64,000 nt of DNA, from NCBI GenBank assembly GCA_965238225.1, contig OZ250183.1:1152001-1216000 (forward strand), in the 5' to 3' direction. The DNA comes from Gammaproteobacteria bacterium (GTDB taxonomy: Bacteria; Pseudomonadota; Gammaproteobacteria; Eutrophobiales; Eutrophobiaceae). Of this stretch, positions 12,440 to 57,659 are shown one piece after another. How positions within the stretch are numbered: the first letter of the stretch is position 1; each line of letters starts with the position of its first letter. The position numbers and the translations under genes were made by a program. Under the pieces are notes generated by a model. That model did not search any database. It was not told where the DNA came from and was given only the letters and a program-made list of their open reading frames with translations.

Positions 12440-13012
12440 ATGACACCGCTAATATTAAGGCTTGATACTGCAGGCTTACCTGTAAAATGGGTTCCATGGC
12501 AAGTCGCAACATGCCTTTATAGCCGCGATATGATCGCCTGGACTGCAGGCGAACGTACGTTCTCATTGAGAGGCGGAATCAACAGAGCAACCGGTGAACG
12601 TTCTTTAATTACAATCAATTCAATCGTTGCAGTCAAACGATCGATCATTAAAAAGAAAGTACGTCGTGACTTGCCGCCGCTCACTAATCGCGAACTCTTC
12701 TTAAGAGACGCACATTTATGCATGTATTGTGGTGAAAATTTTCATGAATCTAGCTTAACGCGAGATCATGTACATCCGCTTTCAAGAGGCGGTAAAGATA
12801 AATGGTCAAATGTTGTCACGGCATGTAAGAGCTGTAATTCTAGAAAAGGCAACCGTCACCCTGAAGAAGCAAGAATGTCGCTATTGGCAGTTCCTTTTAT
12901 CCCCAACTGGGCAGAATACTTAGCGCTTTCAAATCGAAAAATATTGGCAGATCAGATGGAATTCTTAAAATCTCAATTTAGCAACAGGCGCATGCCTTTC
13001 TATAAAAATTAA
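12440..13012 (+). CDS. HNH endonuclease family protein
   Basis: RDAHLCMYCG...TRDHVHPLSRGG...NVVTACKSCNSRKG. Confidence 0.9.
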   Translation: MTPLILRLDTAGLPVKWVPWQVATCLYSRDMIAWTAGERTFSLRGGINRATGERSLITINSIVAVKRSIIKKKVRRDLPPLTNRELFLRDAHLCMYCGENFHESSLTRDHVHPLSRGGKDKWSNVVTACKSCNSRKGNRHPEEARMSLLAVPFIPNWAEYLALSNRKILADQMEFLKSQFSNRRMPFYKN

Positions 13013-22038: not shown

Positions 22039-25000
22039 TTAGGCAGTTTGCCATGTTTCAGTCAATACTGTTTGCAAGCTATCAGCAACATCTTGTGCTA
22101 TGACATTACCTGCACCAAGTGGTACATCATAAGCTGCCATGGCATTGACTAATTTGTGGACATCATCTTGTAGTAACACTGATGAACCAACTTGGAAACT
22201 ATCTAGTTTGTAGTCATTAATCTCACTGTAATCAGGGGGCCACCGGATTTCAGTTTCTACAATTTTTCTACTTCTCGTTTCGTACCAACCGATCACTGTC
22301 GCTTGATCATCGGTTCCAGCGACGGTGATTAGTAAGTCTTTATCACTACGACTAAACCACAAGTCTTCTACTGATACATTGTCAAATTGTAATATATCAT
22401 TACTCGTTGAGTAGTCCGTATCATAATTATAAATGCTTGCATTACCGTCACCTAAAGAAAACAGATAAGTATCGTTACCGTCATCTCCGTACAGGGAATC
22501 GTCACCAGAGCCACCGCTTAGTACATCATCGCCGCTTTGTCCGTACAGGGAATCGTCACCAGAGCCACCGCTTAGTACATCATCGCCGTTTTGTCCGTAC
22601 AGGGTATCGTCACCGTCACCTCCAAACAAGTAATCCTTACCGTCACCTCCGCTTAAGACATCGTCACCATTGCTTCCATGCAAGGTATCGTTACCAGCAC
22701 CTCCGCGCAAATAATCGTCACCATTATCGCCATTTAAGTAATCGTTACCGTTACCGCCATTTAAGTTATCGTTACCGTTAAATCCGTATAGGGTATCTGT
22801 GCCGTTACCGCCATTTAAGTTATCGTTGCCGTTAACTCCGTATAGGGTATCGTTACCGTCACCGCCATTTAAGTAATCGTTGCCGTTACCGCCATTTAAG
22901 TTATCGTTACCGTCACCGCCGTATAGGGTATCGTTATTGTTTTGTCCATACAGGGTATCATTGCCGTTTTGTCCATACAGGGTATCGTAGCCGTCACCGC
23001 CGTATAGGGTATCGTCACCGTTATCGCCGTTTAAGTTATCGTTATCGTTACCACCGTCTAAGATATCGTTATGGTCACCGCCGTATAGGGTATCATCGCC
23101 GTTTTGTCCGTACAGGGTATCGTAACCTGCACCACCACTTAGTACATCATCGCCGTTTTGTCCATATAAGTAATCGGTATCGGCACCTCCGTACAAATAA
23201 TCGTCACCGTCACCGCCGTCTAAGGTATCGTTATGGTCACCGCCGTATAGGGTATCTGTACCGTTTTGTCCGTACAGGGTATCGTAACCTGCACCACCAC
23301 TTAGTACATCATCGCCGTTTTGTCCGTACAGGGTATCGTCACCGTTATCGCCGTTTAAGTTATCGTTATCGTTACCACCGTCTAAGATATCGTTATGGTC
23401 ACCGCCGTATAGGGTATCATCGCCGTTTTGTCCGTACAGCTTATCGTTACCACCAAGACCTTCTATTCGATCATTACCACTACCACCATTGAGAGTGTTG
23501 TCCGTATCATCGCCTATCAATAATCTAGCACCATCAGCAAACTCAATTTGGTCTAATCGGTTATCATCACTTAGGAAGTGATTATAAATCGTTATGGTTT
23601 CTGTTGTGTTATTAGTACCACTTACTTGTAATAGAAGATGATTATCTACGCGAGTTGTTTGAACATCCGTGGTAGCAATGCCTTGTCCAAGTTGCAAGGT
23701 ATCTGTGCTGTTGCTTGTATCAAGGTTGTAAATGGTTGTATCACCGTCACCCAAAGAAAACAGATAAGTATCGTTACCGCTACCTCCGTGCAGGGTATCG
23801 TCACCAGCACTTCCCCACAAGTAATCGTCACCACTACCTCCGTGCAGGGTATCGTTGCCGTCACCTCCGTGCAGGGTATCGTTACCGCTACCTCCCCACA
23901 AGATATCGTTACCAGCAAGACCTTCCAGCAGATCATTACCATCACCACCATTGAGAATGTCATCGTTCTCAGAACCTCTTAACAAGGTTGTTGGCAATGT
24001 CCATACAGTACCGTCAGCAAACTCAACTTGGTCTAATCGGTAATCATCCCTAAAGTGATCGTAAATCGTTATAGTTTCTGTTGTGTTATTAGTGCTACTT
24101 ACTTGTAATAGAAGATGATTATCTACACGAGTTGTTTGAACATCTGTGGTAGCAATGCCTTGTCCAAGTTGCAAGGTATCCGTGCTGTTGCTTGTATCAT
24201 AATTATAAATGGTTGTATTGCCATCACCTAGAGAAAATAGATAAGTATCGTCACCCTTATCTCCAACTAAGACATCCGTACCTGCACCGCCGCTTAAGAC
24301 ATCGTCACCGTCACCTCCAAACAAGGTATCCGTACCAGAACCTCCGTACAGGGTATCGTTACCATTATCGCCAGCTAAGGTATCGTTACCGTTTTGTCCG
24401 TACAGCTTATCGTTACCGTCTTGTCCATACAATCTATCGTTACCACCAAGACCTTCTAATCGATCATTACCATCGCCACCATTGAGAGTGTTGTCCGTAT
24501 CGTCGCCTATCAGTAATCTAGCACCATCAGCAAACTCAATTTGGTCTAATTGGTGAAAATCATTCCAGAAGTGATCGTAAATCCTTATAGTTTCTATCGT
24601 GTTATCAGCGCCACTTACTTGTAATAGAAGATGCTTACCTACGCGAGTTGCCCGAATATCCGCGGTGGTAATACCTGCTCCAAATTGCAAGGTATCTGTG
24701 CTTACGCTTGTATCGGCATTATGAATGGTTGTATTACCGTCGCCTTGAGAGAACAGATAAGTATCGTTGCCGGCACCTCCGTGCAGGGTATCGTAACCTG
24801 TACCACCGCTTAGTACATCATCGCCGCTTTGTCCGTACAGGGCATCGTTGCCGTCACCTCCGTACAGGGTATCGTTACCGTCACCTCCAATCAAATGATC
24901 ACGACCTTCATGTCCATACAAGGTATCGTTACCGTAATTTCCATTTAACTGATCATTACCACTACCGCCATTGAGAACGTTATCCGTATCGTCGCCTATC

Positions 25001-28000
25001 AATATTCTAGCACCATAAGCAAACTCAATTCGGTCTAATTGGTAATCATCCCTTAGGAAGTGATCGTAAATCTTTATAGTTTCTGTTGTGTTATTAGCGC
25101 CACTTACTTGTAATAGAAGATGATTATCTACGCGAGTTGTTTGAACATCTGTGGTAGCAATACCTACTCCAAATTGCAAGGTATCTGTGCCGTTGCTTGT
25201 ATCAAGGTTATAAATGATTGTATCGCCGTCGCCTTTGGCAAACAGATAAGTATCGTTACCGTTACCTCCAACTAGGGAATCTCCTATACCGGCACCCCCG
25301 CTTAAGATATCGTTACCAGCACCTCCATACAAGGTATCGTTGCCGTCACCTCCGTACAGTTTATCTATACCTGCACCGCCAACTAAGGTATCGTTGCCAG
25401 CATCTCCGTATAGATAATCACGACCTTCATTTCCATACAAGGTATCGTCGCCAGCACCTCCGTACAGCTTATCGTTACCGTCACCACCATTTAAGGTATC
25501 GTTGCCAGCACCTCCGTACAAGGTATCGTTACCAGCACCTCCGTACAAGGTATCGTTACCGTTGTCTCCGTTCAAATAATCACGACCTTCATTTCCATAC
25601 AAGGTGTCGTTGCCGTCATATCCATTCAAGGTATCGTCGCCAGCACCTCCGTACAGCTTATCGTTACCGTAATTTCCATTTAACCGATCATTATTACCAC
25701 TACCACCATTGAGAACGTTATCCGTATCGTCGCCTATCAATAATCTAGTACCGTCAGCAAACTCAACTTGGTCTAATTGGTAATCATCCCTTAGGAAGTG
25801 ATCGTAAATCCTTATAGTTTCTGTTGTGTTATTAGCGCCACTTACTTGTAATATAAGATGATTATCTACGCGAGCTGTTTGAACATCTGTGGTAGCAATA
25901 CCTGCTCCAAATTGCAGGGTATCTGTGCTGTTGCTTGTATCAAAGTTATAAATGGTTGTATCACCGTCGCCTTTGGAAAACAGATAAGTATCGTTACCGT
26001 TACCTCCAACTAGGGAATCTCCTATACCGGCACCCCCGCTTAAAGTATCGTTACCAGCACCTCCGTACAAGGTATCGTTGCCGTCACCTCCAAACAAGTA
26101 ATCGTCGCCAGCACCTCCATGCAAGGAGTCGTCACCACCAAGACCTTCTATTCGATCATTACCACTACCACCATTGAGAGTGTTGTCCGTATCATCGCCT
26201 ATCAATAATCTAGCACCATCAGCAAACTCAACTTGGTCTAATCGGTTATCATCACTTAGGAAGTGATCTAGAATCGTTATAGTTTCTGTTGTGTTATTAG
26301 CACCACTTACTTGTAATAGAAGATTATTATCTACACGAGTTGTTTGAACATCTGTGGTAGCAATGCCTTGTCCAAGTTGCAAAGTATCCGTGCTGTTGCT
26401 TGTGTCAAGGTTATAAATAGTTGTATCACCGTCACCTTTGGAAAACAGATAAGTATCGTTACCCTTACCTCCAATCAGCCAATCTCCTGCACCTGCATCG
26501 CCGCTTAAGGTATCGTTGCCGTCATTACCGTACAGGGTATCTCTACCGTCACCGCCGCTTAAGGTATCGTTGCCGTCTTGTCCATACAGGACATCATTAC
26601 CGTTATCTCCAGACAAGGTATCCGTACCGGAACCGCCTCTTAAGAAATCGTCACCGTCACCGCCATACAAGGTATCGTTACCGTTGCCTCCGTACAGCTT
26701 ATCGTCACCAGTAAGACCTTCTATTCGATCATTGCCATTACCACCATTGAGAGTGTTATTGTTCTCATCGCCTACAAATAATAAGGCAGCGTCTATCTGT
26801 GTTGCTGTCCATACAGTACCGTCAGCAAACTCAATTTGGTCTAATTGGTGAAAATCATTCCAGAAGTGATCGTAAATCCTTATGGTTTCTGTTGTGTTAT
26901 TAGCGCTACTTACTTGTAATAGAAGATGATTATCTACGCGAGTTGTTTGAACATCCGTGGTAGCAATGCCTTGTCCAAGTTGCAAAGTATCCGTGCTGTT
27001 GCTTGTATCAAGGTTGTAAATGGTTGTATCACCGTCACCCAAAGAAAACAGATAAGTATCGTTACCGCTACCTCCGTGCAGGGTATCGTCACCAGCACTT
27101 CCCCACAAGTAATCGTCACCACTACCTCCGTGCAGGGTATCGTTGCCGTCACCTCCGTACAGGGTATCGTTACCGCTACCTCCCCACAAGATATCGTTAC
27201 CAGCAAGACCTTCCAGCAGATCATTACCATCACCACCATTGAGAATGTCATCGTTCTCAGAACCTCTTAACGAGGTTGTTGGCAATGTCCATACAGTACC
27301 GTCAGCAAACTCAACTTGGTCTAATCGGTAATCATCCCTAAAGTGATCGTAAATCGTTATAGTTTCTGTTGTGTTATTAGTGCTACTTACTTGTAATAGA
27401 AGATGATTATCTGTGCGAGTTGTTTGAACATCTGTGGTAGCAATGCCTTGTCCAAGTTGCAAGGTATCCGTGCTGTTGCTTGTATCAAGGTTATGAATGG
27501 TTGTATTGCCATCACCCAAAGAAAACAGATAAGTATCGTTACCGCTACCTCCAGTCAGGTAATCTTCTGTACCTGTGCCGCCGCTTAAGACATCGTCACC
27601 GTCACCTCCAAACAAGGTATCCGTACCAGAACCTCCGTACAGGGTATCGTTACCATTATCGCCATTTAAGATATCGTTGCCGGTATCCCCGCTTAAGGTG
27701 TCGTTATCGGCACCTCCGTACAGGGTATCGTTATCAGCACCTCCGTACAGGGTATCGTTACCGTTTTGTCCATACAATCTATCGTTACCACCGAGACCTT
27801 CTAATCGATCATTACCATCGCCACCATTGAGAGTGTTGTCCGTATCGTCGCCTATCAGTAATCTAGCACCATCAGCAAACTCAATTTGGTCTAATCGGTA
27901 AGAATTACCTAGGAAGTGATCTTGAATCGTTATGGTTTCTGTTGTGTTATTAGCACCACTTACTTGTAATAGAAGATTATTATCTACACGAGTTGTTTGA

Positions 28001-30828
28001 ATATCTGTGGTAGCAATACCTTGTCCAAGTTGCAAGGTATCTGTGCTGTTGCTTGTATCGTAATTATGAATGCTTGTATCACCATCACCCAAAGAAAACA
28101 GATAAGTATCGTTACCGCTACCTCCAGACAGGGTATCATCACCAGCACTTCCCCATAAGGTATCGTTACCGCTACCGCCAGCCAGGGTATCGTTGCCGGC
28201 ACCTCCAAACAAGTAATCGTCACCAGCACCTCCCCACAAGATATCGTTACCAGCAAGACCTTCCAGCAGATCATTACCATTGCTACCATTGAGAATATCA
28301 TCGTTCTCAGAACCTCTTAACGAGTTTGTTGGCAATGTCCATACAGTACCGTCAGCAAACTCAACTTGGTCTAATTGGTAATCATCCCTTAGGAAGTGAT
28401 TATAAATCGTTATAGTTTCTGTTGTGTTATTAGGGCTATTTACTTGTAATATAAGATGATTATCTACACGAGCTGTTTGAACATCTGTGGTAGCAATGCC
28501 TTGTCCAAGTTGCAAAGTATCCGTGCTGTTGCTTGTATCAAGGTTATGAATGGTTGTATTGCCATCACCCAAAGAAAACAGATAAGTATCGTTACCGCTA
28601 CCTCCAGTCAGGTAATCTTCTGTACCTGTGCCGCCGCTTAAGACATCGTCACCGTCACCGCCGTATAGGGTATCGTTACCGCTACCGCCAGCCAAGGTAT
28701 CGTTACCGTTAAATCCGTATAGGGTATCGTTATCGGCACCTCCGTACAGGGTATCATTATCGGCACCTCCGTACAGGGTATCGTTGCCGTTTTGTCCGTA
28801 CAGCTTATCGTTACCGTCATTACCGTACAGGGTGTCGTTATCGTTACCACCGTATAGGGTATCTGTGCCACTACCGCCACTTAAGGTATCGTTGCCAGTC
28901 CAGCCGCCTAAGATATCGTTACCCGCACCGCCTTCAAGCACATCATCGCCGTTTTGTCCGTACAGCTTATCGTTGCCGTTACCGCCATTTAAGATATCGT
29001 TGCCGTTACCTCCATACAGTTTATCGTTACCGTCATTACCGTACAGGGTGTCGTTGCCGTTACCTCCATATCGTTGCCAGGCCGCCTAAGATATCGTTAC
29101 CCGCACCGCCTTCAAGCACATCATCGCCGTTTTGTCCGTACAGCTTATCGTTGCCGTTACCGGTATCGTTACCAGCAAGGCCTTTCAGTAGATCATTGCC
29201 ACTACCACCATTGAGAGTGTCATCGTTCTCAGTACCTTCTAACAAGTTTGTTGGCAATGCCCATACAGTACCGTCAGCAAACTCAATTTGGTCTAATCGG
29301 TAAGAATTACCTAGGAAGTGATCTTGAATCGTTATGGTTTCTGTTGTGTTATTAGCACCACTTACTTGTAATAGAAGATTATTATCTACACGAGTTGTTT
29401 GAATATCTGTGGTAGCAATACCTTGTCCAAGTTGCAAGGTATCTGTGCTGTTGCTTGTATCAAATTATGAATGGTTGTATCACCATCACCCAAAGAAAAC
29501 AGATAAGTATCGTTACCGCCACCTCCAGTCAGGTAATCTTCTGTACCTGTGCCGCCGCTTAAGACATCGTCACCGTCACCTCCAAACAAGGTATCCGTAC
29601 CAGAACCTCCGTACAGGGTATCGTTACCATTATCGCCATTTAAGATATCCCCACCTCCATACAGGGTATCGTTACCAGCAAGACCTTTCAGTAGATCATT
29701 GCCACTACCACCATTGAGAGTGTCATCGTTCTCAGTACCTTCTAACAAGTTTGTTGGCAATGTCCATACAGTACCGTCAGCAAACTCAATTTGGTCTAAT
29801 CGGTAATCATCCCTTAGGAAGTGATTATAAATCGTTATAGTTTCTGTTGTATTATTAGGGCTATTTACTTGTAATATAAGATGATTATCTACACGAGCTG
29901 TTTGAACATCTGTGGTAGCAATGCCTTGTCCAAGTTGCAAAGTATCCGTGCTGTTGCTTGTATCAAGGTTATGAATGGTTGTATTGCCATCACCCAAAGA
30001 AAACAGATAAGTATCGTTACCGTTACCGCCATACAAGGTATCCGTACCAGAACCACCGCTTAGTACATCATCACCGTTTTGTCCGTACAAGACATCGTCA
30101 CCGTTACCGCCATACAACCTATCGTTACCGTCTTGTCCATACAGGGTATCGTGACCGACACCGCCATACAACCTATCGTTACCCGTACCTCCCCATAAGA
30201 CATCGTTACCAGCACCTCCAAGCAAGGTATCGTCATCGTCATCGCCAACTAAGATGTCACGACCGTCACCTCCATTTAAGTAATCGTTACCGTTACCGCC
30301 GTATAGGGTATCGTTATTGTTACCGCCGTATAGGGTATCGTTATTGTTACCGCCATTTAAGGTATCGTTACCAGCACCTCCAAGCAAGGTATCCGTACCA
30401 GAACCACCGCTTAGTACATCATCACCGTTTTGTCCATACAGCTTATCGTTACCGTCATTACCGTACAGGGTGTCGTTATCGTTACCACCGTATAGGGTAT
30501 CTGTGCCATTACCGCCACTTAAGGTATCTGTGCCACTACCGCCGCTTAAGGTATCGTTGCCAGCAAGACCTTCCAGCAGATCATTACCATCACCACCATT
30601 TAAGATATCGTTGCCAGCACCTCCAAGCAAGTAATCGTCATCGTCACCGCCAACTAAGATGTCACGACCGTCACTTCCATGTAGGAAATCGTTACCGTTA
30701 CCGCCGTGCAGGGTATCGTTGCCGGCACCTCCAAACAAGTAATCGTCGCCAGCAAGACCTTTCAGTAGATCATTACCATCACCACCATTGATAGTGTTAT
30801 TGTTCTCATCGCCTATAAAATTAGCCAT
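22039..30828 (-). CDS. Giant RTX calcium-binding repeat protein (T1SS substrate), split by two frameshifts near 29070 and 29461
   Basis: GGAGG then ATG at 30828 ([11 protein letters not shown]). Long GGxGxDxLx arrays alternate with 12 near-identical ~85-aa modules (DTYLFSxGDG...EFADG) plus one divergent C-terminal module; RTX-type C-terminus ...LVNAMAAY...WQTA. Spans ORFs 29386..30852, 29060..29437 and 22039..28941. Confidence 0.88.
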
Positions 30829-31039
30829 ACAATAACCTCCACAGTCATTCATTAAATTTACAAAAATTTATTTATTTTTATAAAAATAAAGGTATTTGGT
30901 GTTTAGTATACAAGGTGTTTAGTATATTTGTAAGGACAACAACCTAGCTTAACCCTTCAGAAGCTTTATTCTCTGGCATCAGTCATATAAGAAAGAGCCC
31001 CTAATTCACCCATAGTCAGCAATTATCGTAAAATGCGTA

Positions 31040-48984: not shown

Positions 48985-50450
48985 ATGAAACGAACACGCG
49001 GGCATAAAGGGCGTATCTATAGAGTACCACCCGCATAAGGCTGTTGCTGATATCTAAAAGCTACTTGGGAATGAATCTCGCAATCGAGATATGCTGATTG
49101 ACATCTGCATAAAATTCAAGATCGCTTTGGTCAGATTTCCAGTCGTCATATCTTGGCATTATCGATAGAGATGAGTTTGCCTATGGCTGAGGTCTATGAA
49201 ACAGCAACTTTCTACCATCACTTTGATGTCATGAAACCAAAAGAGGCTGCAATACCTCCTTTAACCATACGTGTTTGCGAATCTTTAAGTTGTGAGATGT
49301 TTGGTGCAAAAGAGCTGTTTGAAGATTATAAAATAAAATATAAGAGTGATATTCGTATTCAAAAAATCCCATGCGTTGGTCGCTGCGATAGAGCCCCTGT
49401 TGCCATTGCTGGTACAAACCCTATCGAATATGCCACTTATGAAAAAATAGAGAATGCAGTAGCCAGAAAAGATTTTGATATCGCTCTACCAGAGTACATT
49501 AATTATATTGCTTATAGAAATTCAGGTGGTTACCAAACACTGATTGATTGTGTTAACAATGACCATAAACGAGAAAAAATTGTCAAAATTATGGAAATTC
49601 AAAACTCCGAGGATTGGGAGGTGCGGGCTTTCCTATAGGACAAAAATAGCGCATTTTAAAGCAACAGACCAAGCCTAGGTTAGTCGACATTAACATTGAC
49701 GAAGGTGAGCCTAGAACATTCAAAGATCGTTATTATTTGGAACGAGATCCGCACAGATTTATTGAAGGAACACTCGATGCCGTAGAACACTAGAAAAAGA
49801 ACTGGACGCATCGAAACAAAACCCGCCTTGCAAGTTACCAAATATTTACCTGAGGCGAGGTGCAGGCGCCTATATTTGCGGCGAGGAATCGGCAATGATT
49901 GAATCTATTTGAAAGGCAAGAAAGGGATATCTCGGCTACGATCTCCCTATATTGCTCAGGTTTGCTTATTTGGAAGACCGACACTGGAGCAAAATATAGA
50001 ATCAATGCATTGGGTCAGAGATATCATTGAAAACGGTGCCAAATGGTTTTCATCTGAAGGTCGTCATGGCCGTACAGGGCTAAGATCATTCTCTATAAGC
50101 GGTCGTGTTAATAAGCCTAGCATGCATCTCGCATCTGCAGTATCACAATGCTCAAACTGATTGATGAATATTGTGGTGGCATGCTTGATGGTCATGAATT
50201 TTATGGCTACTTCCCGGGCGGCGCTTCTGGCGGTATCTTGCCCGCGTCACTGGGCAATGTGCCACTGGATTTTGACACGCTTCAAGAGTACGGTTGTTTC
50301 ATTGGTTCAGCTGCGATTGTCGTGCTGTCAAATAAAGACAGCGCTAAAGATATGGCGCTAAATGCCATGCGTTTTTTTGAAGATGAATCTTGCGAACAAT
50401 GCACGCCATGCCGCGTTGGCACAGCAAAGGCTTCCCGTTATAAAAGATAA
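48985..50450 (+). pseudogene. NAD-dependent formate dehydrogenase beta subunit (NuoE+NuoF fusion, Fdh1B-like), pseudogene
   Basis: Fragments in shifting frames: [78 protein letters not shown]. Confidence 0.9.
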
Positions 50451-50871
50451 TCATATTCAGTATGTTGATGGTCGTAATGGGCTGGAAAACTTGGGAAGAT
50501 TTATGTGTCAAAGGTCGTTATGGTTTTGACTATGTCCACCATTCAGATCGCTTAACAACTCCGCTTATTCGCAAGGAGGGCATGACAAAATCGACAGCCT
50601 TAATCGATCCTTCTGAAATCATAAATATTTTCGAGCAGCAAGCTGGGAGGAAGCCTATCTATTTCAGAAATTGATTAGAACTGGTTTTAAGACCAACAAT
50701 GTGGATCATTGTACCCGTCTATGCCATGCCTCGTCTGTAGTTGCCCTGCTTGAGACTATTGGTTCAGAAGCCGTCTCAAACCAAGTAGCTGATGGCGCTA
50801 ATGCTGAGGTGATTATTGTTATTGGCTCAAGACCAAGTGATAATCATCCTGTTGCAGCCACATTTCTTTAA
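50451..50871 (+). pseudogene. Formate dehydrogenase alpha subunit (Mo/W-bisPGD) fragment; most of the gene is deleted
   Basis: [46 protein letters not shown]; only ~420 bp remain. Confidence 0.88.
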
Positions 50872-50875
50872 TTAT

Positions 50876-51622
50876 TTAAGAACTGAACTCTACACTTTTT
50901 AAGGTCAGAACTTCCCTTACTAAAGGCACAGACGAACTTCCTAAGTCATTGATTACTGTTCTTATTTGGTACAATTTTCCCGGTATTTTATCCGATATAA
51001 TAAATTCATAACTTTTATCAGAAAATTCTCCCAACCTATCTTTATTTTTTATATTTGCATAAGGATATAAAACAATTTTTTCGCCCTCATACTGTTTTCC
51101 TTCCAGTTCAATAGATACATGCTCACTGGTATCACTGTTTGCTATCGCTAACTTTATTTGTCGATGAAAATATTTCCAATTGCCTCCAGTAAAACGATCC
51201 ATTTCGTAAACGTCGCCCTGTAAATATATGCCTAGCACCGGATTGCCAGTGATATGATTCACATTACTGGGTGAAACTTTTTGTTTTTGATCACCTGAAA
51301 AAAAATCAAGTATAGTATCTCTCGTGCCATCCTCATTTATCTTAACAATATCAAGATAAACATCGTCAATGAATCCATCCTCATATGATCCTGTCTTCTC
51401 AAACTCATAGTGCAATCTTGCTGTTTGCTTAATATTTAATAAATGTTTATCTATCCACAGTTTATTTTCGGCATTTGAAAAATTAAATTCATTAGGATCA
51501 ATCATTCCTGTATCATCTATTGAACCGATTTGCGGCTTTATTTCTTTTTTTGTGGTTTCTTCAGAAAAAACCTGAAATGGGCTTAAAAATATAATTAGCA
51601 GTAATGGTAAGTGTCTGATCAT
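50876..51622 (-). CDS. Exported hypothetical protein downstream of xoxJ
   Basis: Signal peptide; LHYEFEKTG, GNPVL, EMDRFTGG...YF; co-oriented with xoxF and xoxJ. Confidence 0.7.
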   Translation of the reverse strand: MIRHLPLLLIIFLSPFQVFSEETTKKEIKPQIGSIDDTGMIDPNEFNFSNAENKLWIDKHLLNIKQTARLHYEFEKTGSYEDGFIDDVYLDIVKINEDGTRDTILDFFSGDQKQKVSPSNVNHITGNPVLGIYLQGDVYEMDRFTGGNWKYFHRQIKLAIANSDTSEHVSIELEGKQYEGEKIVLYPYANIKNKDRLGEFSDKSYEFIISDKIPGKLYQIRTVINDLGSSSVPLVREVLTLKSVEFSS

Positions 51623-51658
51623 TGCAATTTACACTTAAATTTTAACACTGGATGATGA

Positions 51659-52567
51659 CTAGTCATCATCTGGTTCAGACTTTGGCTTCACAGCTACAAT
51701 AGGGATGCCATAGCTACTAATAATCGCGTTTATATCTTCTTGATATTTATCAATAAGCTCATTTAATTGAGCTTTCCATTCATTATCACCATGTCTGACA
51801 GCCATAGACATATTATAAACAAATTTCATTTCTGGCATTTTTGGGTCGTCACCTAAGGGCAGTATCGCCAACTCACCTCTATCTTTATTTTGCGCAGAAA
51901 AATATGCTGCTGTTGGCCCCCAAACGATAGTCGTATCTATTATTCCGTCATATAGATCGTTCAGAATAATTTCGGTGGGGTTTTTTCTGGAATCACCCAA
52001 CTGAAACTGATATGGAACCATCTCGTCCATCAGCTTATGCATGGAAACCCAAAATTGCGCCGGACCACTATCAAACAGACCAAACTTAAACTTATTGCCT
52101 TTAGCCTTTAGCCTTCCCAGCATCTCCGGTTTTGTGATACTGTCTAGTCCTCTGCCTTTCACATACACCAGAGCATAGGTTGATACGTAATAAGGTTTGG
52201 TTGTTGCTGCCAGTTCAAAATGCTCTGGTACGCTCAAAACTAAATCACATTTAAAAATGCCACGTTCTTCAGAACGAAGTGTATTACGAATGAATCCTAT
52301 GCGCTGTGGAAACCATTGGTATTTAAGTTCGGCTCCGAGAGCTTTGGCAAATAATTCAGCGATCTTGTTTTCCATGCCTTCTTGATTTTTATTGGAAAAT
52401 GGCATCAATTCAGGATCGGCGCATACTTTCAAAACAGGACGATTTTTGTATTTAGATTCTTCAGCAAAAGAAATATTACTGATAAAGCCGAGAATAAAAA
52501 TCAGAATCAGGGTAGAAAATCTTCGCGTTGATTGCTTGATAACTATAAAAAAATTTAACATTTTCAT
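51659..52567 (-). CDS. xoxJ: XoxJ/MxaJ-like periplasmic binding protein
   Basis: LKVCADPELMPFSN, GFIRNTL...CDLV, TKPYY.STY, VWGP.A.Y, SMAVRHGD..WK. Confidence 0.88.
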   Translation of the reverse strand: MKMLNFFIVIKQSTRRFSTLILIFILGFISNISFAEESKYKNRPVLKVCADPELMPFSNKNQEGMENKIAELFAKALGAELKYQWFPQRIGFIRNTLRSEERGIFKCDLVLSVPEHFELAATTKPYYVSTYALVYVKGRGLDSITKPEMLGRLKAKGNKFKFGLFDSGPAQFWVSMHKLMDEMVPYQFQLGDSRKNPTEIILNDLYDGIIDTTIVWGPTAAYFSAQNKDRGELAILPLGDDPKMPEMKFVYNMSMAVRHGDNEWKAQLNELIDKYQEDINAIISSYGIPIVAVKPKSEPDDD

Positions 52568-52587
52568 AAATTACATCATCAGGATGC

Positions 52588-53019
52588 TTATTTAGTAGCT
52601 GTCAGTTTCTTTTTCAGTTTAAAGATAACGCCCTTCTCTCTGCCTTTAGCATTAGCCTGAATTTGCTCCATATTATTGGCTTCGCCAACAATGATTGCTC
52701 CGATCATGCCATTAGCATAATGCGGATTACACTTATAGATATAAACACCTTCTGCATCTAATGTAATCGCAAATTCCTGACCAATATTTGACTTCCATGC
52801 TTTTACACCTTCAGGTATCAGGTCGTCCATAGACTGAGTATCATGAACAACCATATTGCTCCACTGAACAGTATCCCCTGGCTTTATAAATACATGTATA
52901 GGATTAAAATTAGTCGCGCCTGCCGCGACTATATGTTCTTCGGCGCCTGCATTAAAGGATACGAACAACACCAGCAAATAAGCTAACCTTGGAAAAGTTT
53001 TCATTATTTTCACCCTCAC
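52588..53019 (-). CDS. Pseudoazurin/plastocyanin-family blue copper protein
   Basis: Signal peptide; F.P..V.IKPGDTV.W, His in VHDTQS, YKCNPHYANGM (C-x2-H-x4-M type-1 Cu site); no CxxCH. Confidence 0.92.
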   Translation of the reverse strand: MRVKIMKTFPRLAYLLVLFVSFNAGAEEHIVAAGATNFNPIHVFIKPGDTVQWSNMVVHDTQSMDDLIPEGVKAWKSNIGQEFAITLDAEGVYIYKCNPHYANGMIGAIIVGEANNMEQIQANAKGREKGVIFKLKKKLTATK

Positions 53020-53131
53020 CCTATTGAGGTTTCGTATTGTTTTAAGACAATTAAATTGATATAGCGTTCAATAATATACCATCGGTGCGCACCTGCTACT
53101 AAAAACTACCTAAAGTGCAGACGCAATTAAC

Positions 53132-53162
53132 AAAAAAGCCCCGACCATAAGGTCAGGGCTTT
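53132..53162 (-). terminator. Intrinsic terminator directly after xoxF
   Basis: Minus strand AAAGCCCTGACC-TTAT-GGTCGGGGCTTTTTT. Confidence 0.8.
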
Positions 53163-53218
53163 CCATAACTACACACAAACCATAAGTTTAAAAAGTTTCA
53201 AACTTACTTAAGTGCTGT

Positions 53219-55120
53219 TTAAGGTAGTGCGAAAACCATCAAAGTACCGCCAGCACGTGAAGACTTCAACAGACCTCTGTAACCACCAACAGCGCCAAGT
53301 GCTGCTGTGTCAGGAGCTGCGGCTAAACCTGGGATAGCAGCAACTGCGCCAGCCCAACCACCAATACCTGATAAGACACCGACATATTGCTTGCCATTGT
53401 GCGTCCAAGTGTTGAAGTTACCGATAATGCCTGAAGGAGTTTTAAATTTCCAAAGAAGCTTACCACTCTTGGCATGTACAGCTTTAGCCCAACCTTCAAG
53501 ATTGCCGTAGAAAACTACGTTGCCTGCGGTTGCAAGCACGCCTGACCATACTGAATACTGCTCAGGAATAGACCATACGATCTTACCTTTGCTAGCATCC
53601 CATGCAATCATATTGCCCATGTTGTCTTTTGCTGCATTGTTGTTCGGACACTCCGGACATACTGCGCCAGCAGGATACATGGTTAAATTTGCATTCACGA
53701 AAGCCTGACCTGAAACATATTTATTACCGCCAGCAGCATAGCTAACTGGTTCGTAAGTCATACATACGTGGTTGGTAGGAACATAGAAAAGACCTGACTT
53801 TGGCGAATAAGCAGCAGGCTGCTCATCCTTAGTACCTAAAGCTGCAGGACAGATGTCTTTAGAAACAACGTCTTCGCCGTTACCGCCTGTGCTCTTGGAA
53901 GCAACACGTTGTGGCAAACCTGTTTTCAGATCAATACCTGTTGCCCAGTTCACTGATGGATCATATTTTTCAGCAACCAACAAAGCACCCGTTTTACGGT
54001 TCATAGTATAGGCAAAGCCATTACGGTCAAAGTGAACCAGTGCTGGTGTCATCTTGCCTTTAACTCTGAAGTCAACCAGAATCATTTCGTTAACGCCATC
54101 ATAGTCCCACTCATCATGAGGAGTCATCTGATAGACCCAATTTGCAACACCAGTGTCGATATCACGAGCGAAAATAGTCATAGACCATTTATTGTCGCCA
54201 GGACGCACAACCGGGTTCCATGTTCCAGGGTTACCACTGCCGTAATACACGAGGTTCGCGTCAAAATCAGCAGGCCACCAACCCCATGTGGAGCCGCCGC
54301 CTTGTTTCCATTGATCACCTTTCCATGAATTCAAGCTGGAATTTTTACCAACTTTCTTACCCAGTGAAGTCGTGTTTTTATCGAACAACATATCTGAATC
54401 AGGACCCATGCTGAAAGCACGCCATGCCAGACTACCGTCTTTTGCGTTGTACGCAGCTAACCAACAACGAACACCAAACTCAGCACCAGAACAACCAGTA
54501 ATAATTTTATCCTTGATTGGGTGCGGTGCATTGGTATTGGTCATACCTGATGTAGGACCGTAAGGACCACCCAAGCTAGCAGGAATATCCGCACCATTTT
54601 TGACTGACCATACGAGCTTACCTGTTTTGGCATTCAGGGCTACCAAAGTGGAGTCAGCTTGTTGCAGATAAATCTGACCCATTGAATAACCAAGACCACG
54701 GTTAACAGTATCGCAGCACATAACTGGTACAGTTACGTCGAAATCCTGTTGTGGTTCGTAATGCCAAATGATTCCCAGTGTATCCAAGTCGATCGCAAAC
54801 GTATTGTTTGGAAAAGCAGCATGAATATACAGGGTATCACCAGACAGACCAGTTGCAGAACTAGGCAGTACTAAAGGACCGCCTTCGTGACCACGCAGAA
54901 CACCTGTTGAAAATGTCCACGCAGCTGATAATTTACCGACATTCCTACTGTTGATTTGTTTCAACTCAGAATAACGATGATTGTTGTAATTACCGCCTGG
55001 AAATGCCCAATAGTTAGGATTCTGTGTCAGCTTACGAACTTCATCATTCGCAGACGCTGCCACAGGCACCATCAGAGCAATCGCAGCGATTACTAACGAT
55101 TTAAAAAATATTTTACTCAT
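53219..55120 (-). CDS. xoxF: Lanthanide-dependent PQQ methanol dehydrogenase XoxF
   Basis: Vicinal [34 protein letters not shown] (DxD lanthanide Asp; MxaF has DYAG), GTKDEQP; no mxaI nearby. Confidence 0.93.
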
Positions 55121-55550
55121 ACCTGCCCACCCCTCTTTGAAATGTTATGCTTAAATTATACGCGATCTCGTATGTACACAGAAAACCCTCCAACGTCCTG
55201 AGATCGGCAGACATCAGGAAGAGTTGTAAAAAATTCTATTTTGCTCAGGAATTAATCGAAGATATCCAAACCACACAGACTCTGCAGACGGTTTAAAAAA
55301 ATGTTGACTGCTATCATATATTTTTATCAGATATCCATTCAATGTTAATTATTTTGATTCGCTTTGAGCATCTACAAAAACTACGATAAAAAATCGCAAT
55401 AAATTCGTTTTTAGCGATCATTGCAATATTTGTATTTATTATTTCCTTAAAATTTGTACTTTATTAGGTATTACTACCAGTCGTACTTCATTCTCAGTGG
55501 ATGAGAGTTGCATTGTAGCAAGTAAATTTTATCCTAACAAACTTTATTAT

Positions 55551-55584
55551 TTAATCCTGAACTTTAATTAATCCTGAACTTTAA
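55551..55584. repeat. 17-bp perfect tandem duplication upstream of xoxF
   Basis: TTAATCCTGAACTTTAA twice. Confidence 0.85.
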
Positions 55585-56085
55585 ATCTTTAAAATTCTAA
55601 AATTTTATCCTTAAAAACATTGAAGAAAATATTACCAGTATCATACGTTACTTACCAAACAATTATCAGCAACAACTTTAAAGTACACATCCAATTAATG
55701 CAGTGCAGCAATTCTAGATGAGTATTTTTAAAGCGTACAAATATATTTCCACACATTTCAGTCCGTTTTATTTTGATGGTTTGCATTAAGAATATGTACG
55801 TGTACGATCGTATATCTTAGTCATCTATTATTTAATTACTTAATTAATAATTACTTAGATAATCTTTTTAAATAATAAGATTAACTCTTGATATGATTAG
55901 TTTGATATTATTTGGAGTTAATCTCATCCGTTCTTTCATGAAAATTTAGTGAAATTTGATGGTATTGAGCCCTCGCCGACAGGTAAACGTCGTGTTGCTA
56001 AAATTATAAAGACTCAAAAAAACATTGTTAAAGATTTACACCTGAAATGAATATTTAGTATTATTATCTGGCGGCATTAAGAAAA

Positions 56086-56951
56086 ATGACATTTGTATTC
56101 AAAACATTAATCCATGCAGCCTCGGCGATGGTCATATTTGCACTGGCCATACCAGTCATGGCCGGTATAGACCTTGATAATCTGAGAAACAGAAACCTAA
56201 ACGACCTGAAAAAGGCATCTGATAAGGTCTAGGGGGAAACCCTGCGCCCTAGGGCATTTCAAAATAGGACAATTAATGAAAAACAAGCCGATGCTGTCAT
56301 TGATGCAAAGGCTCCTTTTAGGTCAGAAGATGCGTCGATAGTACCAGTTTCTATTCACTACAAAGATTCCACAGACGATGGATCGCTACATTAAAAAATT
56401 ACATATCTACCTCGATAAGAATCCATTGCCGCTTGTTGGCATCTTTAAATTTACACCTGAAAGTGGTAAAGCAGATATTGCTATGCGTATCAGAGTTGAC
56501 GACAACACCTGTTTTCGCGTTATCACAGAAATGAATAATGGTGACTTATTGATGAGTAAATCATTTATCCGCTCACTCGGTGGTTGTTCAGAACCTTTGG
56601 GCGCAAGTTGTAGATGAATCACTTAGACGTATGGACAAAATGAAGATGAAGATCGTGGGAGATTTATCCTTTAGGATAAGAGACTATGATGCAACTTAAG
56701 ATAAGCCATCCAAATATCACGGGCTTGGTACCAGCCAAAAAACTGGCATCAAACCACCTCCTCATTTCTTAAAAGAATTTAAAGTAAGCTATGACGGTAA
56801 AACAATCATGAAGGCCAATATAACATTTGCCATCTCCCAAGATCCTATCTTTCGTTTCTTTTTCACGCCAAAAAAGGAAACGGATATAATCGTTCAAGCT
56901 ATCAATACGAAAAATAATGAATTGCAATCAACACATTCAGTGACCTTATAA
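56086..56951 (+). pseudogene. Quinoprotein dehydrogenase-associated SoxYZ-like carrier, frameshifted
   Basis: Signal peptide...APFRSEDASIVPV /frameshift/ DKNPLP...RIRVD...GGCSEP /lesions/ ISHPNITGL...AISQDPIFRF. Confidence 0.8.
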
Positions 56952-57133: not shown

Positions 57134-57544
57134 TCATTTTATCTCTTGTATCTCATCGTATCTTTCGTCTCCCGTCAGATCTGTTGGTGCTACAATTTGC
57201 ACAATCTGTTTACATTGGCTTTTAGCTACCTCTTCAGCCATCGCTAATTTTTTTGAAAAGATTTTGCCAGATTTGTTATCCCTGAAGATTCCACCTTTTT
57301 CACCTGTCATTCCTTGATTTCGATTATAGGTCACTGCATAGCCATATGTTTCAAACAATATTTCTGATGCAACCGAGTCAAGCCGACATGAGCATGTGTG
57401 TAAATCGTCCATAGAATTTCTACCAAGCTCTTGAAGACAATTAAGCACATATTCAACCCTGTCGCGCGTTGGATAGTCATTCGCAATAACGATCGATGGC
57501 GCGCTAAATAACAGCACAATGGAAATAACCTTACTCACTTGCAT
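57134..57544 (-). CDS. Exported Cys-containing hypothetical protein
   Basis: Signal peptide then NDYPTRDRVEYVLNC...CSCRLD; a pattern I associate with PQQ-dehydrogenase neighbourhoods. Confidence 0.7.
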   Translation of the reverse strand: MQVSKVISIVLLFSAPSIVIANDYPTRDRVEYVLNCLQELGRNSMDDLHTCSCRLDSVASEILFETYGYAVTYNRNQGMTGEKGGIFRDNKSGKIFSKKLAMAEEVAKSQCKQIVQIVAPTDLTGDERYDEIQEIK

Positions 57545-57659
57545 TCTATGCACCTCAAAATTTAAACTAATAACAATTATAATATCTTGAACAACCAATA
57601 CATTTTTCAATTACATAAGAAAAAATAGCCCGAAGATAATAACTCAGAAAAATATTTTA

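Follow-up and report, generated by a model that had tools for sequence, protein, structure and literature searches.

A 64,000-nucleotide stretch of a gammaproteobacterial genome (contig OZ250183.1, positions 1,152,001 to 1,216,000; hereafter the window, meaning the whole stretch) was analysed for the gene cluster around xoxF, which encodes a putative lanthanide-type methanol dehydrogenase with pyrroloquinoline quinone (PQQ) as cofactor. Between xoxF and xoxJ, the cluster contains a gene for an exported blue copper protein (cupredoxin) of the pseudoazurin type. This position suggests, without proving, that copper has taken over from haem in the electron acceptor of XoxF. The cupredoxin may be the dedicated direct acceptor of XoxF in place of the XoxG cytochrome, a reading to which a probability of about 0.5 was assigned from sequence evidence. 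To our knowledge, all methanol dehydrogenases studied so far have a dedicated c-type cytochrome, MxaG or one of the XoxG types, as electron acceptor, and the cluster would be a Xox system whose acceptor belongs to another class, apparently not previously described. A literature search, with most subscription journals outside its reach, returned no account of a methanol dehydrogenase with a cupredoxin acceptor or of this synteny. The accessible part of a study of mussel symbionts (PMC10199937) makes no mention of a cupredoxin beside methanol dehydrogenase.

The xoxF cluster and its copper protein

The source of the window is a methylotroph, and the bacterium is described as marine and methanol-oxidising. 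The window has a G+C content of about 39% and contains the C1 genes fae, mch and fhcBADC, which are linked to tetrahydromethanopterin (H4MPT), in addition to cofactor biosynthesis genes; the H4MPT pathway upstream is intact. An earlier note on this DNA had described a co-oriented xoxF, a terminator, a cupredoxin, xoxJ and an exported protein of 248 amino acids (aa). All of these were recovered on the minus strand, as follows.

53219..55120, minus strand: xoxF, putative lanthanide-type PQQ methanol dehydrogenase, 633 aa with signal peptide (TIGR03075 and PDB matches)
53133..53164, minus strand: hairpin resembling an intrinsic terminator, with a T-run, 55 nt past the xoxF stop
52588..53004 (138 aa, ATG start) or 52588–53019 (143 aa, GTG start), minus strand: exported pseudoazurin-type cupredoxin (PF00127)
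51659..52567, minus strand: xoxJ, quinoprotein-dehydrogenase-associated periplasmic binding protein (TIGR03871)
50876..51622, minus strand: P248, exported accessory protein, 248 aa, with an N-terminal hydrophobic leader

The cupredoxin scored 52.4 bits against PF00127 (cutoff 21.2). The earlier note had given it as an exported protein of 143 aa with an intact His/Cys-x2-His-x4-Met site. The open reading frame (ORF) and the site were confirmed, but the length was revised, because a Shine-Dalgarno-like GAGGGTG precedes the ATG at 53004 and P0001, the copy in the database, also has 138 aa, which makes the 138-aa form likelier. The type-1 copper ligands (His, Cys-x2-His-x4-Met), intact in the window protein, were the same in all 54 family members aligned and kept in all 18 xoxF-linked copies. 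Solved pseudoazurins were the nearest by sequence (E ~4e-19). The AlphaFold2 (AF2) model of the cupredoxin had a mean confidence (pLDDT) of 90.1 and predicted a beta-sandwich followed by the two-helix C-terminal extension (residues 112–118 and 123–137) that marks pseudoazurins. The first 27 PDB matches listed by Foldseek for this model were all pseudoazurins, with TMt values of 0.73–0.82 and identities of 27–37%. The amicyanin model TIGR02657 gave only 20.8 bits against a cutoff of 110.2. The protein has a single Cys and no CxxCH, so it lacks the haem site of XoxG or cytochrome cL; it is not a member of the XoxG family, though its function may be alike. Pairwise ratios of nonsynonymous to synonymous substitution (dN/dS) between the window cupredoxin and the relatives' copies were 0.09–0.15, which are rough values because dS exceeded 1.

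XoxF scored 653.6 bits against TIGR03075, the model for methanol/ethanol PQQ dehydrogenases (cutoff 480.05). Its best solved relatives were the XoxF chains 6dam (E 7e-239) and 6oc5 (E 4e-220); the former we take to come from a Methylococcaceae methanotroph and its kind to be the XoxF5 clade. The chains deposited as methanol dehydrogenase large subunits, presumably of the MxaF type, matched at only ~1e-160, and 6zcv, which ranked first among the quinoprotein ethanol dehydrogenases, at 2e-90. Judged by these matches, the window protein is nearer to solved XoxF than to MxaF or ethanol dehydrogenases. The motif HDEWDYDG, with its D-Y-D, and the vicinal cysteines C135–C136 were invariant in 13 of 13 cupredoxin-linked XoxFs. 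The extra Asp two residues past the catalytic Asp (D-x-D) is assumed here to be a lanthanide ligand that marks lanthanide enzymes, and lanthanide-dependent methanol oxidation is the predicted activity of the window XoxF. No haem domain was found in this protein by the Pfam scan. An 8-residue insertion, LPSSATGL (residues 85–92), was present in all 13 cupredoxin-linked XoxFs and in none of the five solved methanol dehydrogenases shown. A further insertion of 11 residues (178–188) was complete in eight of the 13 and partial in one more (L034), and the motif CP[DE]CP (residues 488–492) occurred in nine of the 13. The 8-residue insertion was considered as a docking adaptation, and this idea was dropped since its position relative to the PQQ funnel was not measurable.

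The other two proteins of the cluster are candidate accessory factors. XoxJ scored 246.2 bits against TIGR03871 (cutoff 212.15), and its best solved relative was XoxJ 6onp (E 5e-37). P248 had no name in Pfam, NCBIfam or the atlas, and Pfam matches were found in 0 of 68 members of its family, which is large (516 representative clusters at E of at most 1e-3). The AF2 model of P248 had a pLDDT of 89.7, and its top Foldseek matches were LprG, LolA and RseB. The TM values of these matches were low (0.3–0.4); hence, no LolA/LprG-like function was drawn from so weak a fold match.

Gene order in relatives and the cytochrome slot

The place of the cupredoxin gene was compared with that of the acceptor gene in three annotated plasmid xoxF loci, which were taken from 160 plasmid records with a match. 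The order xoxF–cytochrome c–binding protein was present in 3/3 (Sinorhizobium meliloti pSymA, Azoarcus sp. KH32C pAZKH and Roseomonas marmotae). Next in the Azoarcus cluster come genes for two hypothetical proteins, of 242 and 116 aa, followed by those for a zinc metallohydrolase and a SoxYZ-like carrier. The binding protein of this cluster was 39% identical to the window XoxJ, the 242-aa protein that follows it was homologous to P248 (31% identity, E 6e-35), and the 116-aa protein matched a 158-aa ORF of the window in tblastn at E 7e-16. These shared homologues, together with the SoxYZ-like carrier, indicate that the cupredoxin occupies the place of the cytochrome in a homologous cluster, in other words, that a pseudoazurin gene stands where xoxG is expected, as the earlier note had proposed. 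This homology of the slot is the strongest single argument that the cupredoxin and the cytochrome may be functionally equivalent.

The proposal started from the premise that XoxF clusters normally carry xoxG, which was true of the plasmid loci and does not extend to all methylotrophs. According to the available portion of Yu et al. (2017, PMC5723320), alphaproteobacterial methylotrophs and Methylophilaceae have cytochrome genes alongside xoxF, whereas in the Methylococcaceae none lies close to it and the probable acceptor is encoded by a separate gene, xoxG4. The xoxG4 gene is at an independent chromosomal position (Zheng et al., 2018, PMC5874918, in the portion available). Hence, a cytochrome missing beside xoxF does not itself show a genome without the cytochrome.

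The conservation of the order was explored by one genome scan with the 54-member cupredoxin alignment, which yielded 40 loci (L001–L040) centred on the cupredoxin rather than on xoxF, and synteny was read by tblastn of the four window proteins against these loci. The database relatives of the cupredoxin numbered 137 at E of at most 1e-3, most of them 65–79% identical. The order xoxF–cupredoxin–xoxJ–P248 recurred in 14 of the 40 loci (L001–L010, L032–L034 and L040), so the pseudoazurin–xoxJ synteny for which the earlier note had advised a survey is recurrent. Among these 14 loci, L008 starts at the cupredoxin and L007 is cut inside xoxF. Identity across the 14 loci was 69–93% for XoxF and 41–77% for the cupredoxin. 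The genes xoxF, cupredoxin, xoxJ and P248 are intact, conserved in order and under purifying selection. In a separate observation, L032 (9370–10423) and L033 (9384–10423) were found to carry two tandem cupredoxin genes between xoxF and xoxJ, with the copper ligands intact in both; this tandem lineage has a 5.8-Mb chromosome.

The remaining 26 loci contained cupredoxin paralogues with 34–61% identity, several of which share a genome with a syntenic locus (L004 and L021 are on one chromosome). Many of the paralogues examined were longer, at about 210–260 aa, with an N-terminal extension, and the copy in L016 had a lipobox-like LAAC. Most of those examined sit amid housekeeping genes such as those for an M20 peptidase, mnmG and spermidine synthase. 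The lineage appears to have a general pseudoazurin, which is probably membrane-tethered, plus another copy, soluble and reserved for the xox cluster. In the tree of the short proteins, a window clade of ten xoxF-linked copies (SH-aLRT 99) was placed next to the housekeeping paralogues from those genomes.

The statement of the earlier note that no CxxCH gene lies in or near the cluster was found to hold across the whole window, in which no real ORF contains this motif. In the six-frame ORFs of at least 40 aa, CxxCH occurred three times, in frames of 43, 82 and 89 aa that are overlapped by larger genes read from the complementary strand. No credible CxxCH ORF was found within the ±10 kb examined around the 14 syntenic loci. 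The sole CxxCH ORF of at least 50 aa there was a 105-aa frame in L001, which was treated as spurious because of a longer overlapping ORF on the complementary strand. A tblastn search of the window and L001–L040 with three XoxG-type cytochromes detected no XoxG, decayed or intact, in the window or the 14 syntenic loci.

XoxG-like cytochromes were detected by this search in only three of the 40 loci (L016, L022 and L030), each adjoining paralogous pseudoazurin genes. Their best model was TIGR03874 ('c-type cytochrome, methanol metabolism-related') at 34–87 bits, which was under the cutoff, and the xoxF-adjacent cytochromes of Azoarcus and Roseomonas were likewise under it. No xoxF-linked cupredoxin was fetched from the three genomes, which are metagenome-assembled and so may be incomplete. 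The cytochrome gene has one or two pseudoazurin paralogues as neighbours, among housekeeping genes (L016, 8233–8697 and 9695–10372; L022, 4749–6954; L030, 9424–11316), and the N-terminus of the cytochrome in L022 and L030 resembles a lipoprotein signal. The adjacency may mark a cytochrome–pseudoazurin redox pair. Fused XoxG-like cytochromes were also observed (P0326, P0303 and P0306). One fused cytochrome of 418 aa is named in the source as a quinoprotein-dehydrogenase-associated binding protein and may be a fusion of the GJ type; the others are joined to a domain like SRPBCC/polyketide cyclase, as in a Thiothrix record.

The cupredoxin family was present on five chromosome-scale contigs, namely that of the window (1,722,049 bp) and those of 2,125,472, 2,504,188, 2,264,529 and 1,442,423 bp, two of the five corresponding to L001 and L004. 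None of the five appeared among the XoxG-like cytochrome matches listed (the best 120 of 204 and the best 120 of 146). Other chromosome-scale contigs (1,563,065, 2,210,108 and 2,852,178 bp) and the queries' own contigs do appear among those matches. This complementary occurrence of XoxG-like cytochromes and the xoxF-type cupredoxin favours replacement, although the negative among the matches listed is a weak one.

The hairpin 3' of xoxF has a stem of 14 bp, with 7/14 pairs G-C, and is followed by a T-run. A GC-rich hairpin was present at the equivalent site in 8/8 relatives checked, with a T-run after it in most. The structure could attenuate transcription or stabilise the mRNA, and it probably keeps xoxF transcript levels high relative to those of the accessory genes. 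A scan for promoter-like sequences found 18, against a mean of 17.9 in shuffled sequence, and no promoter ahead of the cupredoxin is claimed.

Flanking genes and other features of the window

The cluster is bounded on both sides by decayed genes, and a small conserved ORF lies beyond one of them. The features are as follows.

56080..56948, plus strand: SoxYZ-like carrier pseudogene (quinoprotein-dehydrogenase-associated), divergent from xoxF
49034..50868, plus strand: remnants of NAD-linked formate dehydrogenase genes, located by tblastn with the intact L001 proteins
57134..57610, minus strand: 158-aa ORF, homologue of the small hypothetical gene of the Azoarcus xoxF cluster (tblastn)

A single fragment of the SoxYZ-like pseudogene matched TIGR04557. 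When the intact L001 protein was aligned to the window, it was spread over three frames (56080–56364, 56360–56611 and 56610–56948); the carrier is intact in L001 and L034, scoring 205 and 234 bits (cutoff 140). In the formate dehydrogenase region, fragmentary matches to the NuoE, NuoF and Fdh-alpha profiles were observed, the beta subunit extended over three frames, and the alpha subunit was reduced to residues 255–430 of 926. The formate dehydrogenase genes are intact in the relatives L001, L010, L032 and L034. The broken SoxYZ-like gene and the formate dehydrogenase remnants suggest an eroding genome, and the four-gene cluster xoxF/cupredoxin/xoxJ/P248 is intact between these two decayed flanks.

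An AT-rich spacer of about 0.9 kb (55145–56050) separates xoxF from the divergent SoxYZ-like pseudogene. This spacer contained short frames only, with no credible ORF and no Rfam match. A comparable long spacer is present in relatives, with a length of about 1.3 kb in L001. The Rfam search of the window returned one tRNA and nothing else. The 158-aa ORF had no family model in the Pfam and NCBIfam scans. Its counterparts occupy the equivalent upstream position in L001, L003–L006, L009, L010 and L032–L034 (given as 11 syntenic loci).

Three further genes of the window were noted. A calcium-binding repeat protein of the RTX type, 2300 aa in length, is encoded at 22039–28941 (minus strand) and matched the NCBIfam RTX and serralysin-repeat models; a second RTX-type repeat protein of 488 aa is encoded at 29386–30852 (minus strand). 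The G+C content over the RTX protein region was about 44%, against about 38% around it. A 190-aa ORF at 12440–13012 (plus strand) had a weak match, in the HNH region, to the IscB and Cas9d models (E ~3e-12, far under the cutoffs) and is probably a stand-alone HNH nuclease.

Proposed electron transfer, its rivals and known systems

In the proposed mechanism, methanol would be oxidised by XoxF at the lanthanide–PQQ site, and the reduced PQQ would donate electrons one at a time to the type-1 copper site of the cupredoxin. The cupredoxin would dock via its hydrophobic patch, with charge helping: its barrel is acidic (isoelectric point, pI, ~4.6) with a basic C-terminal helix, and the mature XoxF is basic (pI ~8.4). 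The reduced cupredoxin would then deliver the electrons to a terminal oxidase, directly or via another carrier, and XoxJ and P248 would serve as accessory proteins. From homology, position, conservation, intact ligands and the lack of a neighbouring cytochrome, we infer the transfer from PQQ to copper, the electrostatic steering and the onward transfer. A prediction of the complex of mature XoxF with mature cupredoxin scored 0.00 in two runs without controls and weighs neither way. In a fuller and more tentative version, XoxG would have been lost in a clade of marine gammaproteobacterial methylotrophs not yet in culture, with a specialised acidic pseudoazurin as the sole direct oxidant of the lanthanide methanol dehydrogenase. 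This haem-free module from lanthanide–PQQ to copper would have arisen via duplication of a housekeeping pseudoazurin and been co-adapted with the clade-specific XoxF insertions. The term iron-sparing for such a module is speculation.

Several observations weigh against a direct acceptor role and bear on its rivals. The NCBIfam equivalog model for pseudoazurin, TIGR02375, gave the window cupredoxin 88.4 bits, under its cutoff of 109.85; the scores of relatives were 91.0 (L001) and 89.4 bits (L032), and a score under this cutoff points to a divergent pseudoazurin subfamily. The cupredoxin tree was poorly resolved, with four label changes, and a single origin of the xoxF-linked copies was neither shown nor excluded. 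Other points fit a secondary carrier, in which XoxF would reduce an unlinked c-type cytochrome (XoxG4-like or TIGR03874-like), the pseudoazurin would carry the electrons on to the oxidase like cytochrome cH, and its place in the operon would reflect co-regulation only. With the conserved terminator-like hairpin lying between them, xoxF and the cupredoxin gene need not be co-transcribed. The XoxG-like cytochromes adjoining pseudoazurin genes in L016, L022 and L030 suggest a relay from cytochrome to pseudoazurin in this bacterial group. The cytochrome negative on the five chromosome-scale contigs is weak, since it covers the best 120 matches of each search, picked through shared 5-residue words, and would miss cytochromes of other types. 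An unlinked cytochrome like the xoxG4 of the Methylococcaceae, which have none near xoxF, would escape every test made (PMC5723320 and PMC5874918, in the parts available). Nevertheless, the xoxF-linked copy occupies the exact slot of the primary acceptor, and a separate, apparently lipoprotein-tethered paralogue in a housekeeping context could be the general carrier. The five contigs that bear the family yield none of the XoxG-like matches listed, weak as this negative is, and the secondary carrier, the main rival of the direct acceptor, was judged rather unlikely.

A general or denitrification pseudoazurin, which would donate electrons to nitrite reductase, nitrous-oxide reductase or an oxidase and stand beside xoxF by local gene history, was considered improbable. 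The sequence and the model are closest to classical pseudoazurins, whose known roles are in denitrification and sometimes in aerobic respiration (PMC12423496, in the part available). However, the cupredoxin stays between xoxF and xoxJ in 14 loci, over which its identity ranges from 41 to 77%, no nir or nos gene was present in the annotated neighbourhoods (L001, L004, L010, L032 and L034 in part; most of the larger window ORFs), and the separate paralogue is available for general duty. Decay on both flanks of the cluster might instead mean that the cupredoxin has no part in the electron transfer of methanol oxidation, for example as a copper-handling or copper-sensing protein or as a decaying gene in an eroding genome. 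This was regarded as very improbable, given the intact frame, the ligands invariant in 54/54, the dN/dS of 0.09–0.15 and the confident fold model.

If the cupredoxin is the direct acceptor, copper would provide a new class of redox partner in lanthanide enzymology, and methanol oxidation in the ocean would be tied to the supply of copper rather than iron. A metagenome bin with xoxF and without xoxG need not then mean an incomplete pathway. The family has over 130 members in public data, which shows the module to be environmentally common.

The proposed pair was compared with known systems. The precedent for a cupredoxin acceptor is amicyanin, a product of the mau operon that takes electrons directly from methylamine dehydrogenase. 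In both cases the operon of a C1 quinoprotein dehydrogenase encodes a cupredoxin, dedicated to acceptor duty in the mau system and predicted to be so here; the enzyme is a different one, its cofactor is tryptophan tryptophylquinone (TTQ), and the window protein is not an amicyanin. The classical pseudoazurins (Alcaligenes faecalis, Achromobacter cycloclastes, Paracoccus and S. meliloti) share with the window protein the two C-terminal helices and the C-x2-H-x4-M loop site. It differs from them in its 27–37% identity, its score under the equivalog cutoff, its acidic barrel and its genomic partner, which is xoxF and not nitrite reductase. The quinohaemoprotein alcohol dehydrogenase of Pseudomonas putida HK5 is a PQQ enzyme that donates to a blue copper protein, azurin. 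Its electrons exit via a fused haem c domain, whereas the window XoxF has no such domain.

The xoxF–xoxG–xoxJ clusters of alpha- and betaproteobacteria and Methylophilaceae resemble the window in their XoxF (57–60% identity) and in the XoxJ-type protein right after the acceptor gene, and the Azoarcus cluster also has the P248-like protein, the small hypothetical protein and the SoxYZ-like carrier. These clusters have a CxxCH cytochrome in the gap between xoxF and xoxJ, whereas the window has a haem-free cupredoxin, and no zinc metallohydrolase or CXXCW protein was found at the window by tblastn. The xoxFJ genes of the Methylococcaceae are alike in encoding a gammaproteobacterial XoxF of the 6dam kind with no cytochrome gene beside it (PMC5723320, in the part available). 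Their xoxF/xoxJ gap is empty and an unlinked cytochrome is the proposed acceptor, whereas in the window the gap holds an inserted cupredoxin. Moreover, the XoxFs of the window type are set apart by the insertion at residues 85–92, which is absent from all five solved methanol dehydrogenases shown.

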